Assembly: GCA_963666515.2 (NCBI GenBank)
Contig: OY762897.2
Span: 2,912,001-2,976,000 of the forward strand
Direction of reading: 5' to 3'
Source: Candidatus Binatia bacterium
Lineage (GTDB): Bacteria; Desulfobacterota; Binatia; UBA9968; JAJDTQ01
Length of the DNA: 64,000 bases
Every line of letters starts with the position of its first letter. Within the stretch, counting starts at the first letter, position 1. Positions 1,661 to 41,096 of the stretch are shown one piece after another. The translations under genes were made by a program, and so were the position numbers. The notes under the pieces are model-generated. The model ran no database searches. It had not been told where the DNA came from and saw nothing but the letters and a program-made list of their open reading frames with translations.

Positions 1661-1798
1661 GGCTGATGGCCACCATGTAGCTACGGAACACTCGAAGGCA
1701 GCGCTGCAGACCACGAGCCAAAAGCAATGGAATAAAGGGCACGGCGTAGACCGTAAGACCTTCAACTCGGCTGTGATTGACACTTTGAGAGTATTCGG

Positions 1799-2923
1799 AT
1801 GATGTTGTCTGATCAACTTACGAGCCTCGCAGACCGCCTAGATCGAGTGACTGTACAGAGTTCTACGATTGAAGAAGCAATCCTACGTCTGGAAAGGTCC
1901 GCGACAGCCGTTGGCAAAGCCTGGAGCGGGTCACCGCTCGGCTACCACTCAAGCGTATACTACCAGGGGTTGACGACACCCCCGCCAGAGGCACTTTTTG
2001 ACCCGGAATGGGGTTTCATGGACGCGTACTTCAGTAATCGTACCAGTGGAAACTGGATGAAGTTTGACCCAGACGAGGTTCGAGCCACCATTTATTCCCG
2101 TGCGGGCAACGCCGACATAGACACACTGCGGAAATTTGACACGGAGGCACAAGCCGAATTTAATGACTGCAAAATGAGCTTGCTCTCTATACTTCAAACG
2201 GCAATGACCAACCAAAGCGATCCATTCTTGACAAACCTCAAGAACAAGATCGAGAAGTTGCCGATCCTCTCCGCGACAGCAGCAACGAAGGTGCTGACGC
2301 CCTCTGGGGAGTTTGTGTCCCGCGATACCACCGCCCTTTCCCAGGGAATCAAGCTACCCCCTCATTTGTACGTGTTGGCGGAAACCGTCGCATTCAAGAA
2401 TACGCTAGCAATAGTCAAGGACCTAGCGCGAGTATCCAAGCAAGCTAGCGAACATGTCTCACGTCAGGAGGCTCACCTAGTGACGACGGGTATCAACGGG
2501 ACAAAAATCTTTATCGGTCACGGCCGTTCACTGATTTGGCGGGAGTTGAAAGACTTTATTGCCGACCGTCTGAACCTTCAGGTAGACGAGTTCAACAGAG
2601 TGCCTGTTGCAGGGATAACTAATATTGATCGTTTAAGAGAAATGTTGGACACGGCAGCTATTGCTTTTCTCATTATGACCGGCGAAGATGAGCAACGGGA
2701 CGGTAAACTTCAGGCTCGCATGAACGTCGTCCACGAGGCGGGCCTGTTTCAGGGTCGGCTTGGATTTCGTCGGGCTATTGTCCTGCTGGAAAAGGATTGT
2801 GAAGGGTTCAGCAATATTGAGGGACTCGGACAGATACGATTTTCAAAGGGTAACATCAAGGAGGCATTCGAGGACATCCGTCAAGTTCTTGAACGTGAAG
2901 GACTATTGCAAGTCGTATCGTAA
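1799..2923 (+). CDS. TIR-like nucleotide-binding domain protein (Cap12/Pycsar-type TIR) with an uncharacterised ~230-aa N-terminal domain
   Basis: The C-terminal KIFIGHGRS...IAFLIMTGEDE...ARMNVVHEAGLFQGRLG...FSNIEGL is the TIR-like signature, with the catalytic-position Glu. Visibly lower GC than the flanks. Confidence 0.85.
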   Translation: MMLSDQLTSLADRLDRVTVQSSTIEEAILRLERSATAVGKAWSGSPLGYHSSVYYQGLTTPPPEALFDPEWGFMDAYFSNRTSGNWMKFDPDEVRATIYSRAGNADIDTLRKFDTEAQAEFNDCKMSLLSILQTAMTNQSDPFLTNLKNKIEKLPILSATAATKVLTPSGEFVSRDTTALSQGIKLPPHLYVLAETVAFKNTLAIVKDLARVSKQASEHVSRQEAHLVTTGINGTKIFIGHGRSLIWRELKDFIADRLNLQVDEFNRVPVAGITNIDRLREMLDTAAIAFLIMTGEDEQRDGKLQARMNVVHEAGLFQGRLGFRRAIVLLEKDCEGFSNIEGLGQIRFSKGNIKEAFEDIRQVLEREGLLQVVS

Positions 2924-3189
2924 GCCATTAGAGTATGATCCGGTCATAGTTTGAACTGAGGCTGACCCTGCCAACGGGGACAGCGAAGCAACCGCCTTTC
3001 GACAATTTCGCCCCGATTCCATCCACCCTACGAAGGATACATGACCGCCATACCCTATTGACTCCCAAGTCGCGGAGCTGGATGTTGCATGAAACGAGGA
3101 GCCTTGCCGCTGTGTGAGATGTCCGTTCGCCCGACAACGACCTCCGTTCTCCCTGCCTCCTGCCACGATTCGCTTCCTCGGACAGGTTG

Positions 3190-5199
3190 CTACCCCCCGA
3201 ACAGCACCCCGTCCGCCCAAAGCACCTTGAACACGCCCTCGAAGAGGCCCCATATCAGCAAGAAGGCGATGGCGGCCATCAACAGGGCGACCCACAGCCG
3301 CTCCCTTCCTTCGACGAGGCAGTAGAGGAAGACGAAGAGCGGCACCGCCACGGTGATGCCCAGCAGCCACACGGCCAGCGCGGCGCCGACGAACCAGGCG
3401 AAGAACACCACGGTGCGCCGGCGTTCCAGCCTGCCGTCGAGTTCCCCACTGAACCCTTCGTCCATCTCGACGCCGCCGGCCGCGGCGGGCTCCCGCCCGG
3501 TGGTCACCCGGAAGAGTTGCCACAGTACCAGGGCGGCGCCCGGGACCGCCGCAATGTAGACCGGCATGAGCTTGGCGATGAACGGCCACTCGAAGCCTAT
3601 GCGGATGGCGAGCAGGAAGAACGCCAGGAAGCCGGCCACCAGCAGGGTCTCCCAGTTGACCCGGAAGGCCGTGGAGGTGCTCTCCCTGGCCCGCACTTCG
3701 GCGCCCGCCGCCCTCTCCTCGCCGCGCGCCCCCCGCTCCCTCCGGCTCCAGAGGGTGTAGCCCAGGGTCCCGGCGACGAGAATGAGGAGCACCAACACCG
3801 AGGGCCGCGCCAGCCACTCGAAGCCGTAGCGCGCATGGGAGATGTACAGGTACTTCTCCATGATGATGCCGAGGATCATGCCCAGGATGAGCGGCGGCCG
3901 GGGATAGCCGAAGCGCTTCATCAAGTAGCCGACGAAGCCGAACGACACCACCATGACGAGGTCCAGCGGGCTCTGGTTGGCGTTGAGCGCGCCGATGAGC
4001 ACGAAGCCCAGGATCGACGGAACGATGATGGAGTAGCGCAACTCCGCGAGCCTGGCGAGCTGGTTCGAGAAGACGAGCCCCAAGGCGCCGCCGATGACGC
4101 TGGCGATGCCCAGCACCCAGACGATGCTGTAGACCACGTCGGCGTTGCGCTCCAGCATGAACGGCCCGGGAGCGAACCCCATGGTGGTGAGAGCGAACAG
4201 GAAGAGGGCCGACACCAGGCTGCCCGGCACCCCCAGCGTGAGCGTCGGGATCAGGGTGCCGCCGTCCTTGGCGTCGTTGGAGGCCTCCGGCGCGATGACG
4301 CCGCGCACGTCGCCCTTTCCGAAGGTCTCCTTGGCGCCCTTGCAGGTCTGGGCCGCGTGCCCGTAGCTGAGCCAGTCCACCACCTGGGCTCCCAGGCCGG
4401 GGATGATGCCGACCCAGACGCCAAGGAAGCTGCACCGGACCACCAGCCAAAGGTTGCGGAAAGCGTCCCGGATGCCGTCCACGAGCCTCCCGGCCAGGGG
4501 CGCCGGCTCGCGCTCCACACCCACCTTGGCGAGCGCCATCTCCAACGCGGACGGCACTCCGAACAGCGCCAGCGTGGCCACGGTCAGCGGCACGCCCTCA
4601 AGCAGGTAGGGCTGGTCGAACACGAAGCGCATGACCCCGGACTGGGGCTGGATACCCACCACGGAGATGACCAGCCCCATGGCGCCCGCGATCAATCCCT
4701 TGAGGGGCCGCGGACCGGCCAGCACCGAGACCATGCTGACGCCCCAGAGCGACACCACGAACAGCTCGGGGGAGCCCAGGAACAGGATCAGCGCCTGGGC
4801 CACCGGGATGGCGGCGGCCAGCGTCAGGGTGCCGACCAGGCTTCCGAGGATGCCGGCGGTAAAGGCCGCGCCCAAGGCTCGGCGGGCTTGGCCGCCACGC
4901 CCCATGGGATAGCCGTCCAGCACCGTCGCCTGGGAGCCGGCGCCGCCGGGGATGCCGAACAGCACCGGCAGGTAGGCGCTGCAGGTGCTGCTGACCGCGT
5001 CCATGCCGATGAGGAAGGCGATGGCGACCAGCGGGTCCCACTGGGTCACCAGCGACAGGAACAGGGCGTACATCAGCGGCGTGCCCAGCCCCTGCGGCGT
5101 CACCGCGGTGAAGGTGCCGACGCCGATGCCGGCGAGCATGCCGATCAGAACGTTGAACGAGAGGAGATTTTGCAGACCCTGGAGGGCGGCTTCGAACAT
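3190..5199 (-). CDS. tctA: Tripartite tricarboxylate transporter permease TctA with a fused C-terminal TctB-like membrane domain
   Basis: TctA motifs LFGIPG...ATVLDGYPM, GVIAPEASNDAK, PTLTLGVPG; about 170 extra residues with 4-5 hydrophobic helices; adjacent to tctC. Confidence 0.85.
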   Translation of the reverse strand: MFEAALQGLQNLLSFNVLIGMLAGIGVGTFTAVTPQGLGTPLMYALFLSLVTQWDPLVAIAFLIGMDAVSSTCSAYLPVLFGIPGGAGSQATVLDGYPMGRGGQARRALGAAFTAGILGSLVGTLTLAAAIPVAQALILFLGSPELFVVSLWGVSMVSVLAGPRPLKGLIAGAMGLVISVVGIQPQSGVMRFVFDQPYLLEGVPLTVATLALFGVPSALEMALAKVGVEREPAPLAGRLVDGIRDAFRNLWLVVRCSFLGVWVGIIPGLGAQVVDWLSYGHAAQTCKGAKETFGKGDVRGVIAPEASNDAKDGGTLIPTLTLGVPGSLVSALFLFALTTMGFAPGPFMLERNADVVYSIVWVLGIASVIGGALGLVFSNQLARLAELRYSIIVPSILGFVLIGALNANQSPLDLVMVVSFGFVGYLMKRFGYPRPPLILGMILGIIMEKYLYISHARYGFEWLARPSVLVLLILVAGTLGYTLWSRRERGARGEERAAGAEVRARESTSTAFRVNWETLLVAGFLAFFLLAIRIGFEWPFIAKLMPVYIAAVPGAALVLWQLFRVTTGREPAAAGGVEMDEGFSGELDGRLERRRTVVFFAWFVGAALAVWLLGITVAVPLFVFLYCLVEGRERLWVALLMAAIAFLLIWGLFEGVFKVLWADGVLFGG

Positions 5200-6399: not shown

Positions 6400-7533
6400 A
6401 TGTCCAGAAACACCAAGAACCCGCCGGGCCGGGTACGTGACGCGATCCTGACCGTGCTCTCCGAATCGTCCACGCCACTGAGCGTCGCAACCATCATCGC
6501 GGAAGTCGGGAAACGGATCGAGGAGACACCGCCGTCTTCCGTTCGCTCATATCTCAGGTTGAACACCCCTGAACTGTTCATTCGAGAGAGTCGCGGAACG
6601 TATCGTGCAAGACAAGCCGCCCCGAGCCCGCGGCAACGATCCTTCCCCGAGATCGACGACAGGGAAGAGAGCTTCTTCTTTCAGAGGTCGGAGCTTCACC
6701 ACGACGATTGTTTCGCGTGGCTGGATCGGCAACCGCACAACTCGATTCACGCGGTGGTCACCGATCCCCCTTACGGCCTGCACGAATACACGCAGGAGCA
6801 GCAGCAAAAACTTCGCGCCGGGAAAGGCGGTGTATGGCGCATTCCTCCTGCATTTGACGGACACCAGCGTTCGCCGCTGCCCCGCTTCACGACGCTGGAC
6901 ACGGATCAACTCACCGAGATTCGGGATTTCTTCACCGCTTGGGCTCGCAGCCTGTTGCCGGTACTGGTGCCCGGCGCCAATGTCATCGTGGCGTCAAACC
7001 CGCTGGTTTCGCACATCGTTGCGACGGCGTTGTCTACCGGGGGACTGGAACGCCGAGGCGAGATCGTGCGGCTCACCATGACCATGCGCGGCGGCGACCG
7101 CCCGAAGGGCGCACATGAAGAATTTCGCGATATCAGCGTCATGCCGCGTTCCATGTGGGAACCCTGGCTCGTGTTCAGAAAACCGCTGACCGGGCGCGTG
7201 CAGGACAACCTGCGGAAGTGGAAGACCGGGGGTTTTCGTCGCCCGGAGCCGGGAAAGCCCTTTGGCGATGTCATCCCTTCGGCTCCAAGCCGCAGTGCGG
7301 AACGTAAGATCGCCCCGCATCCGAGCCTGAAACCCCAAGCGTTTCTCCGTCACCTGGTCCGGGGAGTCTTGCCGGTCGGCGAGGGCAGAATCCTGGACCC
7401 GTTCGCCGGAGCCGGATCCACGCTTGCGGCGTGTAATGCGGTGGGATACGAGAGCGTGGGCGTCGAGAAGGACCGGCACTATTTTTCGATGGCCGTCCGA
7501 TCCATTCCCAAATTGACGGACTACTTACGGTAA
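6400..7533 (+). CDS. Beta-class N6A/N4C DNA methyltransferase with an N-terminal winged-HTH-like domain
   Basis: VVTDPPYG precedes HPSLKP and ILDPFAGAGST (beta motif order). The N-terminal ~70 aa (RVRDAILTVL...LSVATII...SSVRSYLRLN...GTYR) looks like a wHTH. Confidence 0.88.
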   Translation: MSRNTKNPPGRVRDAILTVLSESSTPLSVATIIAEVGKRIEETPPSSVRSYLRLNTPELFIRESRGTYRARQAAPSPRQRSFPEIDDREESFFFQRSELHHDDCFAWLDRQPHNSIHAVVTDPPYGLHEYTQEQQQKLRAGKGGVWRIPPAFDGHQRSPLPRFTTLDTDQLTEIRDFFTAWARSLLPVLVPGANVIVASNPLVSHIVATALSTGGLERRGEIVRLTMTMRGGDRPKGAHEEFRDISVMPRSMWEPWLVFRKPLTGRVQDNLRKWKTGGFRRPEPGKPFGDVIPSAPSRSAERKIAPHPSLKPQAFLRHLVRGVLPVGEGRILDPFAGAGSTLAACNAVGYESVGVEKDRHYFSMAVRSIPKLTDYLR

Positions 7534-25396: not shown

Positions 25397-25477
25397 TGAC
25401 AGGCTGCCCGGCTTGAAGGGGTGTCCTTGCTGAAATGGTTGGTGACCAGACTCAACCGGACCACACGGAGGCGTATC

Positions 25478-26089
25478 ATGAAACGGACCATGCTGATCGT
25501 TGTCGCGACGCTTTCGCTTGCCGCTCACACGGCAGGCGCACAGCAACTCGAGAAGGCGGTCTTCGCCGGCGGCTGCTTCTGGTGCGTCGAGTCGGACTTC
25601 GACAAGGTGCCGGGGGTGGTGTCAACGATCTCGGGCTACACCGGCGGCAAGACCGAGAACCCTACGTACAAGCAGGTCACGTATGGCGACACGGGCCACT
25701 ACGAGGCGGTGGAGATCACCTACGATCCGGCCAAGGTCAGCTACGAGATGCTGCTCACCGCCTTCTGGCGCTCGGTGGACCCCACCGACGACGGCGGGCA
25801 GTTCTGTGACCGCGGCCACTCCTACAAGACCGCCGTCTTCGTGGCGAACGAAAAGGAACGCGGCCTGGCCGAGGCCTCGAAAAACGCCGCGCAGAAGGCC
25901 CTGGGCAAGCCCATCGTCACCCCGATCCTCGCCGCCATGCGGTTTTACCCCGCGGAAGACTATCACCAGGACTATTACATGGTGAATCCGATCCGCTACA
26001 ACTATTACCGCTTCTCCTGCGGCCGGAACCGGAGGGTCAAGGATCTATGGGGTGAGCAGGCTTACCAAGGCATCCCAGGCCACGGGTAA
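25478..26089 (+). CDS. msrA: Peptide-methionine (S)-S-oxide reductase with signal peptide
   Basis: GGCFWC, GYTGG, AEDYHQDYY; signal peptide MKRTMLIVVATLSLAAHTAGA from ATG 25478. Confidence 0.93.
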   Translation: MKRTMLIVVATLSLAAHTAGAQQLEKAVFAGGCFWCVESDFDKVPGVVSTISGYTGGKTENPTYKQVTYGDTGHYEAVEITYDPAKVSYEMLLTAFWRSVDPTDDGGQFCDRGHSYKTAVFVANEKERGLAEASKNAAQKALGKPIVTPILAAMRFYPAEDYHQDYYMVNPIRYNYYRFSCGRNRRVKDLWGEQAYQGIPGHG

Positions 26090-26212: not shown

Positions 26213-26902
26213 TCAAACATCTTCCTCGAGGATTTGACCGTGCTCCCTTAGCCAGCCACGCGCTCTATCCATGGTGGGGGCTTGTGTCTTCACTATGTTC
26301 CAGAATCGCGGCGTATGGTTGGGCTCTAAGAGGTGGGCGAGTTCATGGGTGATAACGTAATCGACCACAAAGATCGGCGCCTTAATCAATCGCCAGTTCA
26401 GGTTGATGTTGCCTCGAACTGTGCATGAGCCCCACCGATATCGACTATCAACGATGTGCCCCTGCCCGAAGGAAACGCCAAGCTCTCGAGCCTGCTTCAC
26501 AACGCGAGGTAAAATTCGCTCCCTTGCTCGCGCGATGTACCACTCACGCATCGCACCCTTCTTGTCAAGCGCGCCTGATGCCGGAATCAGAAAACGCTGG
26601 TCAAACCGAACACGTTCCGTCTCTTTGTCGATGACTTCGATACGGTAACTCCGCCCAAGATATAGCGCGGACTCACCATCAACGAGCTCTTTACCGGGTG
26701 GATGAGGGCGTTCCGTGTATTTTTGGCTATGCCGTGTTTTCTCGTAGATCCAAGGACGCTTGGCTTCGACTATCCGCACAATTGCTTCATCGGAAGCGTG
26801 ATTCGGAGCGTGCACAACAACCTTTCTGTCACGCTCGATAGTGATCGTGACCTTCTTTCGCTTTGAAGATCTTTTTACCGAGTAGGTAATGTCCATCGTC
26901 AT
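26213..26902 (-). CDS. YgjP/M48-like zinc metalloprotease associated with the Type I R-M operon
   Basis: RWGSC, YVITHELAHLLEPNHTPRFW (HExxH); start overlaps the hsdR stop. Confidence 0.88.
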   Translation of the reverse strand: MTMDITYSVKRSSKRKKVTITIERDRKVVVHAPNHASDEAIVRIVEAKRPWIYEKTRHSQKYTERPHPPGKELVDGESALYLGRSYRIEVIDKETERVRFDQRFLIPASGALDKKGAMREWYIARARERILPRVVKQARELGVSFGQGHIVDSRYRWGSCTVRGNINLNWRLIKAPIFVVDYVITHELAHLLEPNHTPRFWNIVKTQAPTMDRARGWLREHGQILEEDV

Positions 26903-28799
26903 TCGCCCGCGAAAAGAATGATGTCATTGTTCTTTTCAGCTATCTCCATAACTCGGCTAATGATGTGCGCACGATTCTTGATGAGGTTGGGTACTTTGGC
27001 GAACTCGGGCGCGATCAGGATTTTTTGGATCTCTGCTTTCAGTTTGTTGCGGGCCGGAATGCTCTCCCAGAATCCTGCCAATTTCAGCTCTCTCTCAATG
27101 ACGAGAGTAGTCTGCTGTGTCAAATCTACAAGATAGCTGATTCGGTCTTCATCGTCGATGCCATCATAGACAGCTTGCTCCTCAGCCACCTGATTCTGCT
27201 TCACAGTCGGATTATCTGCACCGAACAGCTCACGCTGAAACATTCGAAAGAATGGCATTTGCTTTTTTCGATGCAATCCGTATGTTGGCTCGTTGCGGGC
27301 ATTGAGAATGCGCGCCCGCAGCTTCTCTAGTTCTTCGTAGATCTTGTTCCAGTTGTCGCGGAATTGCTCAAATATGGCCGCCAAGGCCTCGGCGAAGGAG
27401 GCTCGCAGGTCCGGATCATCGTCCAGGTCTACGTCGAGGTGGTGGCGTATCGCGTGCTCGATCTCGGCCGCCTTGGTCTTGGTGCGGTGGTGCTCGCCGA
27501 CACCCTTCTCGAAATCCTCGTCAAGGATCGAGATCGGCGGGACCTTTACATCGATGCCCCGAGACTCGAGGTGGGTGTCGGTGATTGTACGAAGCTTCGC
27601 CGGGATCCCCTTCATGCTCAGGCGCTGGTCGCGGAAGTGTTTTCCAGCGAGCACATTGATCTCGGCAAGCGCCTTGTAGTCGCCTATGAATTCGAGGGCT
27701 TGGCGGGCCGGGAAAAGCAGATTGAGCGACTTGGTCAGCCGCTTGAACGCCAGCATGAAGTCAAAGCGCAGATCCTCGTCGTAGAACACATCGTAGAAGG
27801 CGTCATGATCGCTCATGTCCGTGAGTCCATGCTTCTGGAGCAGGTCCATCACGGTTGCGTGGGCTTCCTTGAGTTCCCGCAACTCCTCATCGGGGAAGCT
27901 CAGGGCATCGATGATCTCCTTCTGCTCGCGCTCGTCGTAGGTGTCGATCGCCTTCTTGAGGTGGTGGCCAATACCGACATAGTCCACCACGAAGCCCTTG
28001 TCCTTGGACTCGCCGCTTACGCGGTTCACGCGGGCGATGGCCTGCAGCAGGTTATGGGCAACCACGACCCTGTCCAGATACATCACCTGCTCGACCGGCG
28101 CATCGAAACCGGTAATCAGCATGTTGTTGACAATGAGGATACCCAGGTCGCCGTTGACACCGTCTTCTTCACTGCCGAACGCCAGTTTGAAGCTCTTGAT
28201 GCTCGCCTCGTGCCGTGATGAGTCGGAATACTCCTTGAGGTGAGGCAGGTCGTTGTGGCGTCCGGAGATCACGACGTCCGTCTTCATCGCCTTGAGGCGG
28301 TCCAGGACCAGCTTGCCCGTGTCGGCATGCTCCAGCTTCGCGACAGCCGCCGCGAGCGCGGCGTCCAGGTGCTTCTTGTACCGCACGGCAGCCTCGCGTG
28401 ACGTCGCCACCACCTGCGCCTTGTAGCCGTTGGGCAACACATGTGCGAGGTAGTGCTCCACCATGTCCCTGGCCTTGGCCTCGATGGTGGGCTCTGCCTC
28501 GAGATAGGCGTCGCGCGATCCGTACCCGAGGATGTCGAGACGCTGCTGGATGTTGTACTCGCTGAACACGTCCTCGAACGCCGCGTCCATCCCGCCCTGG
28601 TCGGGAACCTCCGCGTTATGCGTGCGGCCCTCGTAGACGATCTCCAGCGTCACGCCGTCCTGGATGGACTGGCGCATCGTGTACTTGTCGATGTAGTCGC
28701 CAAAGACTTGCTCGGTTTTGTCGATTGGCGTGCCCGTGTAGCCGATCTTGGCGGCGTTGGGGATGCCCTTGTCGAGGTTGGCCCCAAGCAGCTTGTACT

Positions 28800-30188
28800 G
28801 AGCTACATTCAAAAGTGGTGTACGGGGGGAGTTGAAGGAGGCGGCGCGACTCTGCTGAAATGGGGCTTGGAAGAGCAACGTTTCAGCGGGAAAGGAGAAG
28901 CGCCACCATGGAGAAGGATAGGAGAGAAGGGGCCGGGAGTCCAGCGGAATTTCGGGATGAGTTGAGCGAGATGCTGCGAGAGGGAGCACAAGCGATGATC
29001 CGGGCGGCGGTGGAGGCGGAGTTGGAGAGCTTTCTGGGAGGGCATGAGGGGGAGCGTGATGGGAGGGGGAGGCGAGCGGTGGTACGGAACGGGTATCAGC
29101 GGGAACGGGAGGTGTTGACGGGGTTGGGGCCTGTGAAGGTGCAGGTGCCGAAGACGCGGGATCGAGCGGGCAAGGGGCGGTGTTTTCGCTCGGAGTTGTT
29201 GCCGCCGTACTTGAGGAAGGCTCGGCGGGTGGAGGCGGTGGTGCCGTGGCTGTATCTGAAGGGGGTGTCGACGAACGACTTTGGGGAAGCGCTGGAGGCG
29301 TTGTTCGGGGGCGAGGTGAAGGGGCTGTCGCCGGCAGCGATCACGCGGATGAAGCGGGTGTGGGAGGAGCAGTACGCGGAGTGGCAGGAGCGGGACTGGC
29401 ACGGGCACGAGTTCGTGTATGTGTGGGCGGACGGGATCTACGTGAACATCCGGCAGGAGGAGCGGCGTTGTATCCTGGTGGTGGTGGGCTGCGACATTCA
29501 CGGACGCAAGCACTTCCTGGCTCTGGACGCTGGGTTTCGGGAGTCCTTGGAGAGTTGGAAAGCCCTTCTGTTGAGCCTCAGAGACCGTGGCGTGAAGGCG
29601 CCGAAGCTGGCGGTGGGTGACGGAGCGCTGGGGTTCTGGACGGCCCTGGCCGAAGTCTATCCCGAAACCCGCACCCAGCGCTGCTGGGTGCACAAGACCG
29701 CCAATGTCCTGGACAAGCTGCCCAAGCGCGTCCAGCCTGAAGCCAAGTCGATGATCCACGACATCTGGATGGCCGATACTCGCAAAAGCGCCGAACAGGC
29801 CCTGGACCGTTTCTGTGGCACCTACGAAGCCAAGTACCCCAAGGCGGTGGACTGCCTGAGCCGCGACCGCGACACGTTGCTCACCTTCTATGACTTCCCC
29901 GCAGCTCACTGGCAGCATCTGCGTACCACCAACCCCATCGAGTCCACCTTCGCCACCATCCGGCTACGAACCGTGAAGACCCGGAACTGCCTCAGCGTCA
30001 CCACCGCCCTGAGCCTGGTGCATCAACTGGCCATGAGCGCTCAAAAGCGATGGCGCCGGCTCCGGGGGTTCGGTCAACTCGCTGACTTGGTCGCCAAGGT
30101 GAAGTTCGTCGATGGCGTCGATGAAAGGGAGACCCGTAGAAAAGCCGCCTGATTCAGCTCGGCCATACACCAGATTTGACAGTAGCTC
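28800..30188 (+). mobile_element. IS256-family insertion sequence, 1389 bp
   Basis: 23-bp imperfect TIRs: GAGCTACATTCAAAAGTGGTGTA versus GAGCTACTGTCAAATCTGGTGTA (reverse complement of the right end). 8-bp TSD CTTGTACT at 28792-28799 and 30189-30196. Confidence 0.95.
28908..30152 (+). CDS. IS256-family transposase
   Basis: RNGYQ..R, YVWADG, AVGDGALGF, QRCWVHK, RTTNPIESTF; RBS AAGGAG before ATG 28908. Confidence 0.95.
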   Translation: MEKDRREGAGSPAEFRDELSEMLREGAQAMIRAAVEAELESFLGGHEGERDGRGRRAVVRNGYQREREVLTGLGPVKVQVPKTRDRAGKGRCFRSELLPPYLRKARRVEAVVPWLYLKGVSTNDFGEALEALFGGEVKGLSPAAITRMKRVWEEQYAEWQERDWHGHEFVYVWADGIYVNIRQEERRCILVVVGCDIHGRKHFLALDAGFRESLESWKALLLSLRDRGVKAPKLAVGDGALGFWTALAEVYPETRTQRCWVHKTANVLDKLPKRVQPEAKSMIHDIWMADTRKSAEQALDRFCGTYEAKYPKAVDCLSRDRDTLLTFYDFPAAHWQHLRTTNPIESTFATIRLRTVKTRNCLSVTTALSLVHQLAMSAQKRWRRLRGFGQLADLVAKVKFVDGVDERETRRKAA

Positions 30189-31503
30189 CTTGTACTGCGA
30201 TCGGTGGGCCTCGTCGGTCATGACGAGAATGTTGGGGCTGGCGTTCAACTCCGGGAAGGCCTCGGTCAGGTCCGCCTCGCGGAACTTGTGGATCATCGCC
30301 ATCACCAAGTCGGAGGTGTCGGCGCTGAGCAGTTCCTTGAGCCCCGTGATGCTGTCGGCCAGCTTCACCGTGAAGCCGATGCTCTGACTGGTCTCGGAGA
30401 GCTGCTGTTCCAATTGGGTGCGGTCGGTGATGAAGACGACCTTCCAGTTCGAGAGCTGCGCGTGACGGTACATCTCCCGAACCATGAACATCATGGTGAG
30501 TGACTTGCCGGAGCCTTGGGTGTGCCAGATGATGCCGCTGCGCTCGCGGGGATTACGGCCTTCGATCAGCCGCTTCACCGCCAGTTTCACCGCGCGGAAC
30601 TGTTGGTAGCGGCCGACGATCTTGATCGTCTGACCTTTGTCATTCGTCGAGAACAGCGTGAAGGTCCGAATCAAGTCGAGCAGGTTGTCCCGGTCGAGCA
30701 TGCCGGCGACGAGACGTTGCTGGTCGTTAGGGCTACCTGAGCCGTGGTCCAGCTCGTCCACGGTCCGTGGATACGGGTCGGCCCAGCGGTAGAAGTACTT
30801 CTCCGTGTGCGTGGTGATGGTGCCGAACTTGGCTTCCTGCCGGCAGGTCGCAACGACGAACTGGTTGTAGTAGAAGAGCGGCGCATTCCCTTCCCCTTTG
30901 GCCCCGCGCTGCTCGCTGTAGCGGAGAAGCTGATCGATCGCCTCCGGAATCGCGTCCTTGACCTTGGGCGATTTGCACTCGATCAGCACCACCGGCAGGC
31001 CGTTGAGGAACAGCACGACGTCGGGGATGATATGGTGCTCGGTGCCGAGTACGCGGACCTTGAACTGGCAGATCGCTATGAAGCGGTTGTTGTCGCGGGT
31101 CGCAAAGTCCACGAAGCGGACGGTCGGGCTCTTCTCGCCACTCCGGCGGTTCTCGCTGACGCTGGTGTTCTCCAGCAGGAGTTGGAACAGGTGCTTGTTG
31201 TTCCCCAGCAAACCGGTGCTCGGGAAGCTCGCAGTGAGCTGCTTGACGACCTCCTCGACTTGATCGTCTTCGAGCCAGGGGTTGATGACCTTGAGCTGCT
31301 CGCGCAGCACCGGCGGCATCACGACCTCGGTAAAGCTCTCCCGTTGGGTGTCGGCCGGGGTCTGCTTCATGTCCGTCAGATCGATGACCTCCCAGCCCAA
31401 GCCCGCAAGCTGGTCGAGCAGAGGCTTCTCGACGTGGTTGCGCTCGTCAAGGCGTAACACTTCAGGTGACTTTGCGGGGCCGGGCATGCTTGTGTCCTGA
31501 AGT

Positions 31504-34500
31504 TCAGATCGGAGGATCGCCGTTCACCCAGCCAGCTGGAGGCGTCTTCCAGATTCCTTCTGGTGGTGCGCTTGAACCGGCTCCAATAAGCAACCCTCCC
31601 GCAACAGTGTTGGGCTTCGGTCGGTTGACCAGTTTCTCCGGGCAGATTTCTGCAAACGCTATCGCTACCTGGGGCTGACCATGGGAATGAAAGACTTGTC
31701 GGTGAAATGGCTTATCGAAGGGCATGAAGAATGAGCTTCCACCAAACTGACCGTTGTTCACTAAGAGTACGCCCTGATACATGTGGTAATGCAACGCCTC
31801 CGACATCCTGTCGAACGCCCCGACATCCCGGTTGAGCGCACAGATGATGTAGAGATCACTTCGTGATCGAAGGTCGGCCGCGAGTGTCAGGTCCGTCGCG
31901 TCGTAGCACACCGACGCGGTGATGGTCAGTGGGCGATGATCACGGTTCGAACTCCACTTGTACTCTACGAGCCATTGCGCAGGTCGAAATCCGATGGGGG
32001 TCGGCGTCAATGACATTTCATCGGCGGTGAGGTGCAGTTTGCCCTGCTCGACGGCGCGCAGCTGGAAGCCACTGCTTCTAGTCCACTCCGGAATAAGCCA
32101 CTGGCAAGAGTTGATGAGCGGCGACCCCAGCAACCACGGCTCCGCGTGATACACCATGCCGAAAAGAAGGATGCACCGGTGCTTCCGGGCAAAGGGCACC
32201 AAGAGCGGTCCAACGTCATCGGGGTGCACCGCTAGTTCTGGGAAGACCAAGAGATCGATTGTCTGGCCGTCGCCACGGGCCATGCTGCGATGCGTGTCCC
32301 GCAGTCGTCGCATCTGATTGACCCCCTCGAGTGCTGCTGCAAGATGCGCTCGGTGCCTAAGTCGAAACGAAGGGTCACCACTAAGATCAGGTGCAGTGGC
32401 GTAGCGAAGGTAGTCCCCTAAGTCGGGGATCACCGTCTGGACAACGCCGATGCGCAGTGGCCGCCCCCAAGCAGTGGCATGCTCTGGTCGGTATGGAAGG
32501 GGGGCAGACTGCTCCAAGAAAAGCGTTCGGCTGTGGGCCCCATACTGCGCACTAAGTGCGTCTAAACGGGACGCAATCGCTCCCCTGATCTCAGTGAGGC
32601 TGCGACTGGGAGACATGACACCGGACCCAGGCCACCGGAGAAGCTCGTATAGCAGATCTTCTAAGAATGATGATATCGGGAGCCACGGAGGGCCGAATGC
32701 GCTACGTCCCTGAAACGCTGAGTATCTCTGTTGTTCCCAGTGCGAGATGGGACGGGAATAGCGTGGCCCCATATAGCGCTTGGCATTGGTAGCTCCCACA
32801 AAGAAATCGGTGGTCCCACGGATCGCGAATCGCAAGAGAGCCCCAATCTGATACCGTTGGCGCTCCTCGGGCGTCTCGCACCACTCAGGTAGTGTGAACA
32901 AACGTGCCCCTGTACTTACGGATCTGCGAACCCGGAACGTGGCCGGGTCGATCCACCCGAACCGGTCACGTTGGTTGTCGGACTTGAGTCTGCACTCGAT
33001 CTGCCAAGGTGTGAGGGGCGTTTCGAATGTGTCTTCCGGGAGCCCAAATAGCCAGTGCGCAAAGTACAGGAGGTTCAGTTCGGTAAAGAACGGATTGTTT
33101 TGCAGGCTGGCGAGATCTGGCAGACAAGCGGCGGCATCTGGTGCCCGACGTGGCTTCAACCCCAGCCGCTCGGCCATCTGAGTGAGCGCATTGCCTGCGC
33201 CAAGTCTCGCCGCTTCCCACAACGCAGCGGCTGTGCTCGGGGAGCATGTCTCAACGCGGGACAGAAACTCCGGCGAAACTCCTTGCTGCGCGATGCGGTC
33301 AACCAATCCGTTAAGCGAGAAACCCGTCCGAGCAATGACGAGGAAACTCGATCGCTCATCCAACCCCGCTGGCCAATCGCCGCTCAGGAACTTGGCAAAC
33401 CGCCGATATAGCGCGAGTAACGGGCCACCCTTTGCGCCCAGTTGGGTCACAGTTTCCGGAAACGCTTCTCGCGCTGAGAGATAGAGAAACACCTGCTGCA
33501 TGAGGTACCACGGCAGACGAGAGCTGCTCGATTGGCCATTCACGAGCTGGTTGAAGATGTCTTGAGCCTCTTCGAGTAGTCGCTGGTGGTAGCGGTCTAA
33601 GCGAACGCCCTGCGGTAGACATTCGTCATCCGACACCATCCCCGTCTCGGTCGCCCCTGCTCGGAACAGTTCGGCCAGACAGTACAGGCGAATCTCGCGG
33701 CGGGCTCCCCTGGAACCATCGACCGCCCACCCTGGCTTGAGCACCCGGAGAACTTCATTCAGGAACTGAGGGTCCGGGTACATGTCGAGTGCCACACGCA
33801 GCAGACGCACGTTTGCCGGGTTGGCGGTCCACTCCTCGATGAGCAGTGCGGCGAAGAGCTTGGCTCGCTCGTCGAGCTGGACCTTGGAGAGCACTAGGCT
33901 TTGCTCGCTCCCTTCGTCGTCCGGCTCTTCGTCCGTAGGCGGCACTTCCCGTCCGACGTCCCGGTCGTCGCCCTCCAGCATGGGGCGCAAAGAGCGGAAT
34001 GTTCGCCGGAAACGGCCCGCTGCGAATCGAGCAGCCGTTTCGTCACGCATGTCGGATAGACCCACCAGCAGACCGGTTCTGCCGACTTCCTCAGGCTTGG
34101 TCTCGGTGGAGTACCTCTTCTGAGTGTGGAAAAAGCCCTCGATGGCACCAATCAGCTCGGTGCCGTGGAGCATGTCAAACACGCCGGATACGTCGCTCTG
34201 AATGCGTTTGGCGGCAAGAGACTGCGGCACGAGGAATCGCCGGTCGCGTCCTTCCACCGTCACAGTCGTCTTGGACTGTTCGACCACGAGCCCGGGAGCC
34301 GTTATATCAAGCTGGCGTTGGAGCCAATTGGATATGGCGTCGCGAACTTCACGCTCTGCAAGGCCGGGGTCGGAACGGGGGATCTGGACAACCAATCGGA
34401 AGTCGTCAACGTAATAAGCCGCATCCAGTAGCTTGATGCCTAGGGCTTCGTCAATGACCCGTCCGATCGCATCGCGGAGTCTCGTCTCAAAGTCCTGCAT

Positions 34501-35361
34501 CACGACATTCGCGAAGAAGCCTGATGCGACCAGCCCCTGTGGGAGCGCCACGTTCATAAAACCGTCAAGGTCGTGCTCGAGGGAATGGCGGGACGCGCGC
34601 TTCGTGTCCGCCCACCGCCAATCGAAGACACGGCCTGCGAACTCGAAGAACCTTGGATCATCACCGTCTCGTCCGAGTTGCTCGATCTTCTGACGGAGCA
34701 AGTCCGGCTGCACACGGTCGTAGAACTTCGACAGATCGCTCTGAACAATCGCCATCTCGAACTCCGGCGCGTCCGAGTCCACGCTCTCCGCCACAACTCG
34801 TGGGCGACGAAGAAACGTCTGGTAGTCCTGGAAATACTGGCGATACAGCTTGGAGCTACCCCAACGGTGACGAAGTCCGCCGTCCTCGGTATCATCGCAG
34901 ACGAGTCGGTGGCCATAGGCGAGGACACGGCGCCGATTCTCTTCTGAGTCGATCGACAGCCGAGGGTCATTCATCCGAGTTTCGATGCGGTCGGCTAAGC
35001 AGAGCATGATGGCCGTCGCCACGACTTGGTCCCGCAGCGCTACATGAGCAAGCGGACGGAGCTCCTTCTGGTAATTCTGATTGGCCCGCGGAATCCAATT
35101 GCCACTGTCATCGAAGCACCATCGCTGCGTCTTCGGAGCCGGAACCAGATCAAGGGGCTCGGGCGTCCAGTCGGAATATGTATCGATTGCTGCCCGGATC
35201 TCCGCGAGAAAGGCCGGGATGCGCAAGGTTTGAAAGTCGATGCCGAGCGTATCGGCATACCAACTGTGCGTCCGCAGATAGGAGGAAGTCTTCTTCCACG
35301 CCTGCATAAGTACGCATTCGAGCCGGAGGTCCTCCAGGGATGGGTTGAGGATCTGCTTCAT
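31504..35361 (-). CDS. Reverse transcriptase-nitrilase (C-N hydrolase) fusion, defence-associated RT type
   Basis: RT motifs QSDLSKFYD, LPQGLVASGFFAN and YYVDD (34402-34416), then a long helical middle region, then a nitrilase triad VFPEL, EQGKLH, VCYDATD; 1285 aa uninterrupted. Confidence 0.9.
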   Translation of the reverse strand: MKQILNPSLEDLRLECVLMQAWKKTSSYLRTHSWYADTLGIDFQTLRIPAFLAEIRAAIDTYSDWTPEPLDLVPAPKTQRWCFDDSGNWIPRANQNYQKELRPLAHVALRDQVVATAIMLCLADRIETRMNDPRLSIDSEENRRRVLAYGHRLVCDDTEDGGLRHRWGSSKLYRQYFQDYQTFLRRPRVVAESVDSDAPEFEMAIVQSDLSKFYDRVQPDLLRQKIEQLGRDGDDPRFFEFAGRVFDWRWADTKRASRHSLEHDLDGFMNVALPQGLVASGFFANVVMQDFETRLRDAIGRVIDEALGIKLLDAAYYVDDFRLVVQIPRSDPGLAEREVRDAISNWLQRQLDITAPGLVVEQSKTTVTVEGRDRRFLVPQSLAAKRIQSDVSGVFDMLHGTELIGAIEGFFHTQKRYSTETKPEEVGRTGLLVGLSDMRDETAARFAAGRFRRTFRSLRPMLEGDDRDVGREVPPTDEEPDDEGSEQSLVLSKVQLDERAKLFAALLIEEWTANPANVRLLRVALDMYPDPQFLNEVLRVLKPGWAVDGSRGARREIRLYCLAELFRAGATETGMVSDDECLPQGVRLDRYHQRLLEEAQDIFNQLVNGQSSSSRLPWYLMQQVFLYLSAREAFPETVTQLGAKGGPLLALYRRFAKFLSGDWPAGLDERSSFLVIARTGFSLNGLVDRIAQQGVSPEFLSRVETCSPSTAAALWEAARLGAGNALTQMAERLGLKPRRAPDAAACLPDLASLQNNPFFTELNLLYFAHWLFGLPEDTFETPLTPWQIECRLKSDNQRDRFGWIDPATFRVRRSVSTGARLFTLPEWCETPEERQRYQIGALLRFAIRGTTDFFVGATNAKRYMGPRYSRPISHWEQQRYSAFQGRSAFGPPWLPISSFLEDLLYELLRWPGSGVMSPSRSLTEIRGAIASRLDALSAQYGAHSRTLFLEQSAPLPYRPEHATAWGRPLRIGVVQTVIPDLGDYLRYATAPDLSGDPSFRLRHRAHLAAALEGVNQMRRLRDTHRSMARGDGQTIDLLVFPELAVHPDDVGPLLVPFARKHRCILLFGMVYHAEPWLLGSPLINSCQWLIPEWTRSSGFQLRAVEQGKLHLTADEMSLTPTPIGFRPAQWLVEYKWSSNRDHRPLTITASVCYDATDLTLAADLRSRSDLYIICALNRDVGAFDRMSEALHYHMYQGVLLVNNGQFGGSSFFMPFDKPFHRQVFHSHGQPQVAIAFAEICPEKLVNRPKPNTVAGGLLIGAGSSAPPEGIWKTPPAGWVNGDPPI

Positions 35362-35383: not shown

Positions 35384-36640
35384 TCATGCCGTTCCCCCCT
35401 CGCCTTGTTCCAGCAGCGCCGTCACGCGGCGGTCTCCCGTCAAGAGGTCCTGCATAAGGCCGACCTTTATTGACCTGAGTTTGTAGAGGTGTTCCCGGTA
35501 GGCATTGAGGATCTCCCTCACAGCCGAGATGCGAACCGCAATCGCCGTCTGTTCATCCAAGTTCCTCGGGAACGCGGCAGGGATCGAACGAAGATTCGTT
35601 GGATTGATGTTCACTTGCTGAACTGCGGGCGTGGCCTGTCGGCGCATAGCGATCTGAATTCGTTCCCAGTTCAGCCAGAAATTAAGCATCTCGGGCAACA
35701 GTTTGTCCGGGTGCGGGTTCAGCCGCACGAGGTACGACGCGAAGGTTGTGCTCTCGATCTGCCCTCTCCAGATACCGGTTCGACCGACATGCTCCCAGCT
35801 ATTGGTTCGATTGAAGAGCACATCCCCATCTCTCAGCCATAAATGCTTGGGCACCGGGCCATCAGTGAACTTGAGGTCAGATAGTTCGGCTTCACCATCG
35901 AGCAGATTGTTCATGCGCAACACGGGATAACCCGATTCTCCGAGCGATGTTGAAATCCCATACTCCGCCGAAGGAACAAACACCGCCAAGGATGCACTTT
36001 CCCACTCCATCGGGATCCGTCCGAGCGGGGAGTCTTTGAACTTGTGGGTCTGTTCGGAGCGGAGGTTGCCGTGCTCGTCGATGCCGCGGGTGAGCAGATC
36101 CTGTACCAGGCCGGTCTTGATGCGCTGCTGCTTGACGATGAGCGCCTCGGTCTCCTCGATTGCCCGATCCATCGTCGAAAGCACCTCAGAGATTTTGGCT
36201 TGCTCGGCCTTTTCCTTCGGGTGCAGGACCGGCCACTGTTTCAATTCCGAAGAGTTGATCGCCTCAAACGTGGAACCCTGTGAAGCGAGCCTGAATCTTG
36301 GCTCCTGGAAGACCAGAAAGTGCTCAAGAAAGTCCTGAGTTACTCGCGTTCCTTTCAACGCGGCCAAGCCGCGACCAATCACATAATCACGGTTGGCGAC
36401 ATTCAGACGTCCGACGGGCGCGCGAACGCTGAGTAGGATCGATCCAGCACACCCAATCTTTTTGCTGTGGCTGCAATAGATGGTATGCATGGGATGCCGG
36501 CCCTGAAACTCCGCGCACCCTTGTAGGAATGGAAGTCCGACTTCCTCCTCAGAGTAGTACTTGGAATCAGGTGACTGGCCCATGACGACTTGGGCGACCT
36601 CCGCGAGCGGTTTGATGTGCCAGCCATCCGGAAGCGTCAT
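35384..36640 (-). CDS. hsdS: Type I R-M specificity subunit
   Basis: Two TRDs with conserved EQAKI...[10 protein letters not shown] and EQTAI...GLMQDLLTG repeats; LPDGW and IPMEW starts. Confidence 0.93.
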
Positions 36641-39893: not shown

Positions 39894-40160
39894 CTAAATT
39901 AAACCCATGTACCTCGCCCGTTTCAACACCTCTTTGACTTGCTCCGGCTTCGCCTTTCCGGTCTTCAAGCGTTGCAGATTGAGCGGGTGCGGGTAAACGT
40001 CCTTCGCCCCTGTCGCCAGCGGATGGGTGAAAATATGGTGGCTGCCTTTGCGGTTCCGAAGCTTCCAGCCAAGTTGCTCCACGAGTTTCAGCAAGTCGTT
40101 GAAAGGGCAATTCGATGGAGAATTCTCCGCGTTTTCCAGCAGTTTCTTGCCCACTGCCAT
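39894..40160 (-). CDS. hicA: HicA-family mRNA interferase toxin
   Basis: LVEQLGWKLRNRKGSHHIFTHP (GSH motif), 88 aa, basic. Confidence 0.87.
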   Translation of the reverse strand: MAVGKKLLENAENSPSNCPFNDLLKLVEQLGWKLRNRKGSHHIFTHPLATGAKDVYPHPLNLQRLKTGKAKPEQVKEVLKRARYMGLI

Positions 40161-40250: not shown

Positions 40251-40600
40251 TGGTGGAGGCGGGGGGAATCGAACCCCCGTCCGAAGGCTTTCCGCCAGAA
40301 GTGACTACATGCTTAGTCGCCGTTTGAGTCTCGCCGCTCAAGCTCCCGACGACAGGGGCGTGAGCGGCCAGCCGGTTTGAATCTCGACCTCAACCCCTCC
40401 GGCAGGAGAATCGGTCCATCCCGCTGAATGACGCCTTGTCCGGCCCCGCGGGAGAAGGCCGGCAAGACGCTGGCTGTCTAAGCAGCCAGAGCGTACTCTT
40501 GTTCGTCTGCAGTTACTTGCAGTCCTGCGTTTTTAACGGGGCCGCAGGACCCCGGCATGCCACTTTGACTTCCCACCCCCGTCGAACCCATATCGCCCCC
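40251..40600 (-). ncRNA. ssrA: tmRNA
   Basis: 5' GGGGGCG pairs with 3' CGCCUCC-ACCA with G3-U; T-arm GGGGG-UUCGAUU-CCCCC; tag frame 40510-40478 encodes ADEQEYALAA*; next to smpB. Confidence 0.96.
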
Positions 40601-40622: not shown

Positions 40623-41096
40623 TCAACTTCTGCGGCTCTTCATGGAGCGTTCCATCTCCCGCCGGACCATCTTTTCCTTGACCGTGGCGCGCTTGTCGTA
40701 GAGCTTCTTGCCTCGGGCCAGGCCCAGCTCCACCTTGGCGCGCCCATCCTTGAAGTATAGCTTCAGGGGAATCAGGGTCAAGCCGCGCTCCTTGACCTTT
40801 CCCGTGAGCCGCATGATCTCTCGCTTGTGCATGAGCAGCTTCCGCGGCCGGGTGGGCTCGTGGTTGAACATGTTGGCCGCGGGATACGGGCTGATGTGAG
40901 AGTTGACCAGCACCACCTCGCCCTTGTCGACGCGGGCGTAGCTGTCGGCCAGGTTCGCGCGTCCGTCCCGCAGCGACTTGACCTCGCTGCCCAGGAGCAC
41001 CATGCCGGCCTCGAAGGACTCGTCGATGAAGTACTCCCGGCGCGCCCGCCGGTTGACGGTGACGGTCTTGACGGAGGTTTCCTTGGCAGAGGCCAT
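40623..41096 (-). CDS. smpB: SsrA-binding protein
   Basis: NRRARREY, EAGMVLLGSEVKSLR, RKLLMHKREI, GKKLYDKR. Confidence 0.97.
   Translation of the reverse strand: MASAKETSVKTVTVNRRARREYFIDESFEAGMVLLGSEVKSLRDGRANLADSYARVDKGEVVLVNSHISPYPAANMFNHEPTRPRKLLMHKREIMRLTGKVKERGLTLIPLKLYFKDGRAKVELGLARGKKLYDKRATVKEKMVRREMERSMKSRRS

Follow-up and report, generated by a model that had tools for sequence, protein, structure and literature searches.

Introduction

The described defense system closest to the subject of this work is Defense-associated reverse transcriptase 1 (DRT1), in which a reverse transcriptase (RT) is fused to a nitrilase. Here we analyzed a 64,000-nucleotide stretch of DNA of Candidatus Binatia bacterium (contig OY762897.2 of assembly GCA_963666515.2, positions 2,912,001 to 2,976,000 of the forward strand; the whole stretch is called the window), in which a gene for such an RT-nitrilase lies between hsdS and hsdR of a Type I restriction-modification (R-M) operon. 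In our judgment, this is probably an autonomous DRT1 carried as cargo in the Type I operon, where it would provide a second, abortive layer behind restriction. An RT-nitrilase in such an operon was largely to be expected, given a known DRT1 type and a slot where defense genes often swap.

The published text on the studied DRT1 (PMC13275509) reports that it guards Escherichia coli as a single gene, and that its synthesis of semi-random DNA is template-free and starts from a serine primer (Ser402) conserved in the family. The RT-made DNA is described there as constitutive, and as both enabling and restraining the nitrilase: covalent DNA drives the tetramerization that the nitrilase requires, and also assembles the protein into dormant filaments, whose swapped C-termini shut off the site of the nitrilase. 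In the same text, the lid residues K1219 and A1223 are essential, the RT knock-out mutates D324/D325, and escape mutants of phage T4 point to the Dda helicase as a trigger component. A neighboring membrane-protein gene, drt1b, is reported beside about 18% of drt1 genes, and DRT1 is functional without it.

The slot between hsdS and hsdR is likewise described. DarTG2 occupies it in the RRDM island of enteropathogenic E. coli (PMC12255303), as does TgvAB in VPI-2 of Vibrio cholerae (PMC11411939). According to the text of a further source, embedding within Type I R-M systems is common (termed "guilt-by-embedding"), with 96.7% of embedded genes oriented as the host system (10.1101/2024.01.29.577857). 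A recombination hotspot has been proposed for the slot. Our literature search did not find DRT1 or UG1 named as cargo of the hsdS-hsdR slot or of Type I systems, and figures and supplements outside the search may list it. Another occupant of a Type I operon with which DRT1 might be compared is PrrC, an ATPase-nuclease (anticodon nuclease) that the Hsd complex keeps physically masked until an anti-restriction peptide of a phage sets it free.

Results

Assignment of the RT-nitrilase to DRT1

The PADLOC Drt1a profile PDLC03745 matched the RT-nitrilase with E=0 and 1105.9 bits over profile positions 5-1175 of 1176, that is, end to end, which leaves no concern about a chance match, and a second Drt1a model (PDLC02171) matched at 1e-118. 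The PDB entry 9yfd, "Defense-associated reverse transcriptase 1", matched at E=2e-109 over two regions, the RT (aa 5-354) and a C-terminal one (query 749-1239, chain 718-1203). The PADLOC RTasNitrilase profile gave 2.1e-56 over aa 814-1278, and Pfam RVT_1 stayed below its threshold (28.4 bits vs a cut-off of 29.6).

At E<=0.001, 644 clusters matched the RT-nitrilase, and 26 DRT1 representatives (29-55% identity) drawn from them were aligned to evaluate conservation, with the positions in the window verified by translation. The aspartates of the YVDD motif, D319/D320, align to D324/D325 of 9yfd. Ser392 is a candidate counterpart of the published priming residue Ser402, and lies in a stretch outside the 9yfd alignment. 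In a C-terminal motif, conservation and the equal K...A spacing make K1272 and A1276 candidates for the essential lid residues K1219 and A1223.

These profile and residue matches identify the RT-nitrilase as an intact DRT1 (UG1, which belongs to class 3 of the UG/Abi RTs). The initial annotation, made from the sequence without database searches, had recognized an intact RT-nitrilase of the UG/Abi defense RTs with a YVDD motif and a nitrilase Glu-Lys-Cys triad; this was borne out, as both sites were confirmed by translation and are invariant in the 26 sequences, and the clade can now be given as UG1/DRT1 on the strength of the PADLOC Drt1a and 9yfd matches. A second DRT1 was not found in the genome.

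Organization of the operon

The open reading frame (ORF) listing and profile scans of the window gave a minus-strand row of hsdM, hsdS, the RT-nitrilase gene (hereafter drt1), hsdR (in two pieces) and ygjP (Table 1). hsdS overlaps the hsdM stop by 4 bp. As read from the sequence, the gap between hsdS and drt1 is 22 bp (hsdS TGA at 35384-35386, drt1 ATG at 35361-35359), and that between drt1 and hsdR is 16 bp (drt1 stop at 31504-31506, hsdR ATG at 31487). No promoter-like or terminator-like match was found on the minus strand within the operon. Because of these short gaps and the lack of an internal match of either kind, the genes of the operon, including drt1, are very probably co-transcribed. 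The gene order, coordinates and gap sizes of the initial annotation were exact, and its proposal of an RT-nitrilase embedded between hsdS and hsdR and co-transcribed with them agrees with these results.

It had also been stated that the gaps leave no room for a non-coding RNA (ncRNA) or a small membrane-protein partner. The statement is true for gaps of 22 and 16 bp, which could not hold a Drt1b-type partner, but it has no bearing here, since DRT1 is template-free and single-gene and mostly occurs without drt1b. The absence of space for an ncRNA or partner is thus normal for the family and uninformative on coupling to Hsd proteins, and the tight packing needs no special explanation. A crude hydropathy screen of 75 loci with DRT1 relatives (described below) found a small same-strand ORF with at least two predicted membrane segments beside DRT1 in only two of them, L032 and L063 (L numbers denote loci).

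The YgjP-like gene lies downstream of hsdR in relatives of every Type I family seen, and is the usual last gene of the operon. About 400 residues of the window HsdM (895 aa) form a coiled-coil-looking C-terminal extension past the methyltransferase domain; in other Type I families that host DRT1, HsdM has about 530-610 aa.

Cargo of the hsdS-hsdR slot in related operons

The slot was surveyed in the best 80 of at least 580 stretches that match the HsdM family of the window, 54 of which show both hsdS and hsdR. Among these 54 informative operons, the slot was empty (<400 bp) in 14, held DRT1 in 6, and held other cargo of 0.6-8 kb in 34. The remaining 26 loci were cut off, and one of them, L116, shows DRT1. 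Pfam was run on 77 of the 97 cargo ORFs. The cargo included Gabija-like OLD-TOPRIM and UvrD proteins (L117, L122, L123 and L175), GmrSD (ten loci), SIR2-HerA (L163, L168 and L169), SMODS with SLATT (L164), Cap15 (L181) and KwaB (L131), as well as PIN/Phd pairs, Schlafen/AlbA_2-HATPase_c_4 proteins, Fic, Abi_C and transposases. CBASS-like systems and toxin-antitoxin (TA) pairs are represented among this cargo. Slots bearing DRT1 often hold further cargo (GmrSD, RhuM, AbiEii, Fic or YhcG), and cargo other than DRT1 abuts hsdS equally tightly, for example, at 10 bp in L117.

These results indicate that the hsdS-hsdR slot is a general cargo site and is not special for DRT1. The initial annotation had named it as the place of PrrC in EcoprrI; that view gives way to one of a general and already described cargo site, which in the Type I family of the window is mostly occupied by other systems. 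A different RT (515 aa, RVT_1 4e-13) was seen in the slot of L168 (L168:16136-17683), beside the SIR2-HerA pair, so that the RT cargo of the slot extends beyond DRT1.

In five loci (L001, L004, L006, L007 and L008), DRT1 is followed by a short remnant of the hsdR 5' end, then by further cargo and a complete hsdR, and the 16-bp junction between DRT1 and hsdR in L004 and L006 is identical to that of the window. The 22-bp leader of DRT1 is conserved in the subgroup of the window, and in L014 about 26 nt of leader (L014:9975-10000) stay with DRT1 though GmrSD, and not hsdS, is upstream. From the hsdR 5' remnants and from the leader that travels with DRT1 in L014, we infer an exchange of cassettes through recombination within or close to two conserved regions, the 3' end of hsdS and the 5' end of hsdR.

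Genomic contexts of DRT1 relatives

Relatives of the window DRT1 were collected in three scans, with one genome per species, which yielded 92 distinct loci (22, then 20 new and 50 new). The third scan covered the best 80 of about 500 matching stretches, and the clade of the experimentally studied DRT1 lies outside the sample. Contexts were scored by tblastn with Hsd proteins, by HMMs built from five Hsd families, by Pfam on flanking ORFs, and by PADLOC; a locus without a Type I gene is one with none within flanks of 8-10 kb. ORFs of the relatives were called by a simple longest-first rule, and many of the loci are metagenome bins, in which frame breaks are possibly assembly errors.

Of the 22 nearest loci, 12 had DRT1 preceded by hsdS and followed by hsdR, all in one orientation (L001, L002, L004-L010, L014, L019 and L020), and 4 more had an Hsd gene on the sole visible side (L016, L017, L018 and L021). 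L015 was ambiguous, L003, L011, L012 and L013 were elsewhere, and L022 was too short. By this count, the homologues do not lie in random contexts, a finding that the initial annotation had named as one that would speak against its proposal.

The later scans added two further embedded loci, L042 and L049, as well as L053 (DRT1-AbiEii-hsdR), L034 (DRT1 directly after the ygjP of a complete operon) and L056 (a degenerate copy). Few of the 50 more distant loci (37-51% identity) had a Type I gene within 8 kb. These are L096, with the order hsdS-DRT1-hsdM and without a full-length DRT1 frame; L066, where DRT1 is about 950 bp downstream of an hsdR-M-S cluster; and L080 and L093, in which an hsd gene is encoded on the other strand.

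Members of the subclade to which the window DRT1 belongs were also found between SspH-SspA/DndA and a PDC-S68 helicase in L048 (L048:1391-15444), and in L013 (L013:6352-18357), where an HKD-SNF2 helicase is on one side and a Type IIG enzyme on the other, with AbiEi nearby. In L051, DRT1 is near a DrmMI-like methylase, an LmuB-like ATPase and an HNH protein, and in L032 there is an HKD-SNF2 helicase. Therefore, this subclade is also present inside other DNA-modification-based defense clusters.

Broken drt1 copies were seen in L012, L021, L042, L056, L061, L062 and L084. In L006, hsdM and hsdR are each split into two ORFs and DRT1 is whole; together with the split hsdR of the window, this suggests that DRT1 is kept while the R-M system decays. 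In one of the Type I families, HsdR carries an in-frame IS200-like Y1 transposase domain between the nuclease and the motor (L018:4291-8016, L020:14400-17987 and L021:3698-7693; Pfam Y1_Tnp E of about 1e-8 to 3e-9, in proteins of 1195-1331 aa).

Tree of DRT1

A FastTree tree without bootstraps was calculated from 76 rows, namely, the 75 loci with a full-length frame and the window, with the 17 loci lacking a full frame left out. One clade of 29 rows contains 15 rows with Hsd genes on both sides, 2 with an Hsd gene on one side, 1 with an adjacent operon, 1 that is ambiguous, and 10 without a nearby Type I gene. The other main branch comprises 44 rows, of which none is embedded, also when checked with the HMMs; for 31 of them, the sequence extends about 7.5 kb or more to each side. 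The three rows closest as outgroup (L064, L065 and L069) show no Type I gene, and they come from short contigs or from the ends of contigs. Context labels cluster on the tree, in that 0 of 500 shuffles needed as few changes, a result that shows clustering only, as related rows share labels.

Interruption of hsdR

It was found that hsdR is interrupted at about codon 433 by an insertion sequence (IS) of the IS256/Mutator family, which has imperfect terminal inverted repeats. The ends of the IS were fixed by comparison with the intact hsdR of relatives and by a 9-bp direct target duplication, CTTGTACTG, at 28792-28800 and 30189-30197. A blastn match of the hsdR 5' part to the intact hsdR of L004 ends at 30189, and the 3' part has 91% protein identity to residues 430-1060 of the L004 HsdR. 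The allusion in the initial annotation to an "IS-repaired operon" thus corresponds to an hsdR split by a 1388-bp element with a 9-bp duplication.

In the genome, this IS is present in three full copies, which are 100% identical, and in one partial copy (94% identity); by the identity of the full copies, the insertion looks recent. Among contigs compared from four runs, those of runs X2, X3 and X4 bridge the right-hand IS end, and one contig of run X1 (depth 4, with a shorter side of 30 letters) joins 28791 to 30189 without the IS; this single low-depth contig gives a weak hint that the insertion may be polymorphic. The Type I R-M system is therefore not complete and intact, with hsdM and hsdS whole and hsdR split. 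Modification may persist, and restriction in this strain is probably off because the IS recently split hsdR. Elsewhere in the genome there is another hsdR, whose open frame spans 1067 aa.

Surroundings of the operon

The GC content is 55-63% at about 26-40 kb of the window, compared to 65-72% on either side. On one side, the hsd-drt1 islet borders directly on the tmRNA gene (ssrA) at its 3' end, and smpB is beside ssrA; the other edge of the islet is at msrA. The 3' end of the tmRNA gene is a classic insertion site of islands. No att-like repeat (>=12 nt) of the ssrA 3' region was found at 15-39 kb of the window, and no integrase was found among the ORFs scanned in the window. Between ssrA and hsdM lie hicA and, downstream of it, a HicB-like ORF.

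In the first 4000 nucleotides of the window, a stretch of 58% GC, a 374-aa protein (1799-2923, plus strand) has a C-terminal CAP12/Pycsar-type TIR effector domain (4.9e-22). The ORFs upstream of this gene had no Pfam match, and positions 1-4000 may be a second small defense islet. A DNA methylase gene (N6_N4_Mtase) was seen at 6400-7533.

Table 1. Features of the hsd-drt1 locus and its edges (positions in the window).
Feature	Position	Strand	Support
hsdM, Type I methyltransferase subunit, 895 aa	36637..39324	-	Pfam N6_Mtase 1.3e-100, HsdM_N 3.3e-28; PADLOC MTase_I PDLC03031 2.5e-277
hsdS, specificity subunit, 418 aa	35384..36640	-	Pfam Methylase_S 1.4e-13; PADLOC Specificity_I 5.7e-51, nearly full length
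drt1 (Drt1a, UG1 class 3 UG/Abi RT-nitrilase), 1285 aa, intact by sequence	31504..35361	-	PADLOC Drt1a PDLC03745
RT active-site motif YVDD, aa 317-320	34402..34413	-	Translation; invariant 26/26
Ser392, candidate DNA-priming serine	34186..34188	-	Invariant 26/26; only invariant Ser in aa 364-445
Nitrilase catalytic residues E1042 (32236-32238), K1108 (32038-32040), C1152 (31906-31908)	31906..32238	-	Translation; invariant in 26-sequence alignment
Candidate C-terminal lid motif K1272-T-P-P-A1276	31534..31548	-	K1272, P1275 and A1276 >=90% conserved
hsdR 5' part (HSDR_N nuclease domain and start of SWI2/SNF2 motor)	30189..31487	-	Pfam HSDR_N 4.3e-39, SWI2_SNF2 3.8e-43
IS256/Mutator-family IS, 1388 bp	28801..30188	+	Transposase 28860-30152 (+), Pfam Transposase_mut 8.1e-71
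hsdR 3' part	26899..28800	-	Pfam SWI2_SNF2 (C-terminal half), T1R_D3-like, T1RH-like_C
ygjP-like metallopeptidase gene	26213..26902	-	Pfam YgjP-like 8.3e-55
hicA toxin gene, between ssrA and hsdM	39894..40160	-	Pfam HicA_toxin 2.8e-09
tmRNA gene (ssrA), islet edge	40251..40600	-	ARAGORN
smpB, beside tmRNA gene	40623-41096		SmpB 1.8e-61
msrA, other islet edge	25421-26089

Discussion

The reading that we prefer is of a layered-immunity islet of about 14 kb beside the tmRNA gene, in which a Type I R-M operon would carry a single-gene abortive-infection DRT1 in its hsdS-hsdR slot. All of the genes would most likely be transcribed from upstream of hsdM. If the steps shown for the homologue hold here, DRT1 would prime DNA synthesis on its own serine, probably Ser392, and would become covalently attached to a short untemplated DNA product; it would then form tetramers and dormant filaments, with the nitrilase site closed by the C-terminal lid of a neighboring subunit. 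DRT1 would then be released by replication functions of the phage (for the studied protein, a Dda-type helicase), and the nitrilase would abort the infection. By the same analogy, DRT1 would work independently of the Hsd proteins and would cover phages that escape restriction. The simplest reason for the habit of this subclade to reside in the slot would be expression from the operon combined with cassette exchange by recombination in the conserved flanks.

Several observations weigh against the reading of an autonomous cargo. The protein is far from the studied DRT1, with a middle part (about aa 355-750) that is barely alignable to 9yfd, so that its autonomy would be an extrapolation. The 29-row clade, which has a support of 100, holds every one of the 15 rows flanked by Hsd genes on both sides and, in total, all 18 Type I-linked rows, and in six loci (L007, L008, L010, L019, L020 and L049) the hsdS stop overlaps the DRT1 start by 4 bp. 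Between groups within this clade, the DRT1 proteins are 51-60% identical, whereas the host HsdM and HsdR proteins are 31-36% and 27-35% identical, respectively; conversely, HsdM of L007 and L008 is 76-78% identical to that of the window, with DRT1 only 54-56% identical. This discordance indicates that the histories of DRT1 and the R-M genes do not match, and that the slot was filled, or its occupant replaced, several times. The subclade is found in three Type I families at the least, and in probably five. Its link to Type I systems is tighter than a passive cargo model demands; its fidelity to the slot is real, and such a model does not obviously call for it.

Some of these points would fit a guard resembling PrrC, in which DRT1 of this subclade is held latent by the Hsd complex, or senses it, and fires when a phage anti-restriction protein disables R-M. 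The slot fidelity (18 of 29 rows linked to Type I genes, vs 0 of 44 embedded in the other main branch) argues for such a guard, but 10 of the 29 rows are without a Type I gene within 8-10 kb, and several of them are beside Ssp, Type IIG or HKD-SNF2 proteins. Thus, drt1 resembles prrC in being embedded in an hsd operon, but its family context is not nearly exclusive (one row of the 29 being ambiguous). A guard is also in keeping with a slot that was filled in three or more clearly distinct Type I families, where the similarities of DRT1 and those of the Hsd proteins do not follow each other, yet one conserved interface for Hsd proteins that are about 30% identical is hard to picture. The position of DRT1 directly after hsdS, with the 4-bp overlaps, could reflect coupling, but the slot accepts any cargo and other cargo also abuts hsdS tightly, as in L117; moreover, drt1 of the window is intact although hsdR is broken. 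We know of no Hsd dependence of the PrrC kind for DRT1. A precedent exists in PrrC itself, reported in the text of one source as almost solely embedded in Type I R-M (10.1101/2024.01.29.577857), whereas the studied DRT1 is reported to work alone, with a helicase as its identified trigger component (PMC13275509). The initial annotation had proposed that RT-made DNA switches on the nitrilase when R-M is inhibited, and this is superseded by the published account, in which the DNA is constitutive and the trigger component is T4 Dda and not an anti-restriction protein. Overall, we consider a guard held or triggered by the Hsd complex improbable. It seems equally doubtful that the embedded subclade is functionally tied to R-M in a wider sense, either checked or tuned by the methyltransferase core or sensing a stalled or inhibited Hsd complex, as an RT-based guard that unrelated Type I families repeatedly recruited.

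It could also be argued that the islet is decaying, with the operon being lost and drt1 an unexpressed or inactive passenger, which we think slightly less probable still. The split of hsdR by an IS with three identical full copies in the genome and the broken drt1 genes of seven relatives point in this direction, but breaks in metagenome-assembled relatives may be assembly errors, and in the window the frame of 1285 codons is open, with every catalytic and conserved residue present. Furthermore, the IS is downstream of drt1, where it should not block drt1 transcription, and the insertion looks recent; the X1 contig without the IS, although weak evidence, agrees with this.

As it stands, the locus is a clean natural example of restriction and a putative abortive RT-nitrilase packed as layers in one operon, and it offers a divergent DRT1 for comparative work. 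The useful lead is at the level of the lineage: for one DRT1 subclade, the hsdS-hsdR slot is the main residence, in Type I families that share only some 30% identity. If a function lies behind this habit, a DNA-synthesizing defense would be linked to sensing that restriction has failed; if expression and recombination alone account for it, the habit documents a cargo lineage that specializes on one hotspot.

Comparison with known systems

Compared to the studied DRT1 (9yfd; Neville et al., Nat Struct Mol Biol 2026, PMC13275509), the window protein is alike in architecture and length class (1285 vs 1229 aa), and in the YVDD motif and nitrilase Glu/Lys/Cys residues; it also has an invariant serine where the primer is expected, and a conserved C-terminal K...A motif that is a candidate for the lid. 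Like most drt1 genes, that of the window has no ncRNA and no drt1b. It differs in being divergent (E=2e-109) and in belonging to a separate subclade that is mostly inside Type I R-M operons. Gao et al. 2020 is also cited in papers on DRT type 1. The UG5 RT-nitrilase module, described in the text of PMC13436386 as antiviral, likewise combines a class 3 UG/Abi RT with a nitrilase effector, but the UG5 profile matches only the nitrilase part of the window protein, and weakly (2.1e-23 vs E=0 for Drt1a).

PrrC of EcoprrI is similar in being an abortive-infection effector whose gene lies within a Type I hsd operon and is co-oriented with it. However, PrrC is masked by Hsd proteins, whereas DRT1, by analogy with the studied homologue, would have a latency device of its own in the DNA-adduct filaments, and its wider family is mostly not embedded. 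DarTG2 and TgvAB resemble the window DRT1 in the slot, the orientation, the apparent co-transcription, and the role as a complementary second layer to restriction; these loci differ from the window in that the cargo here is DRT1.

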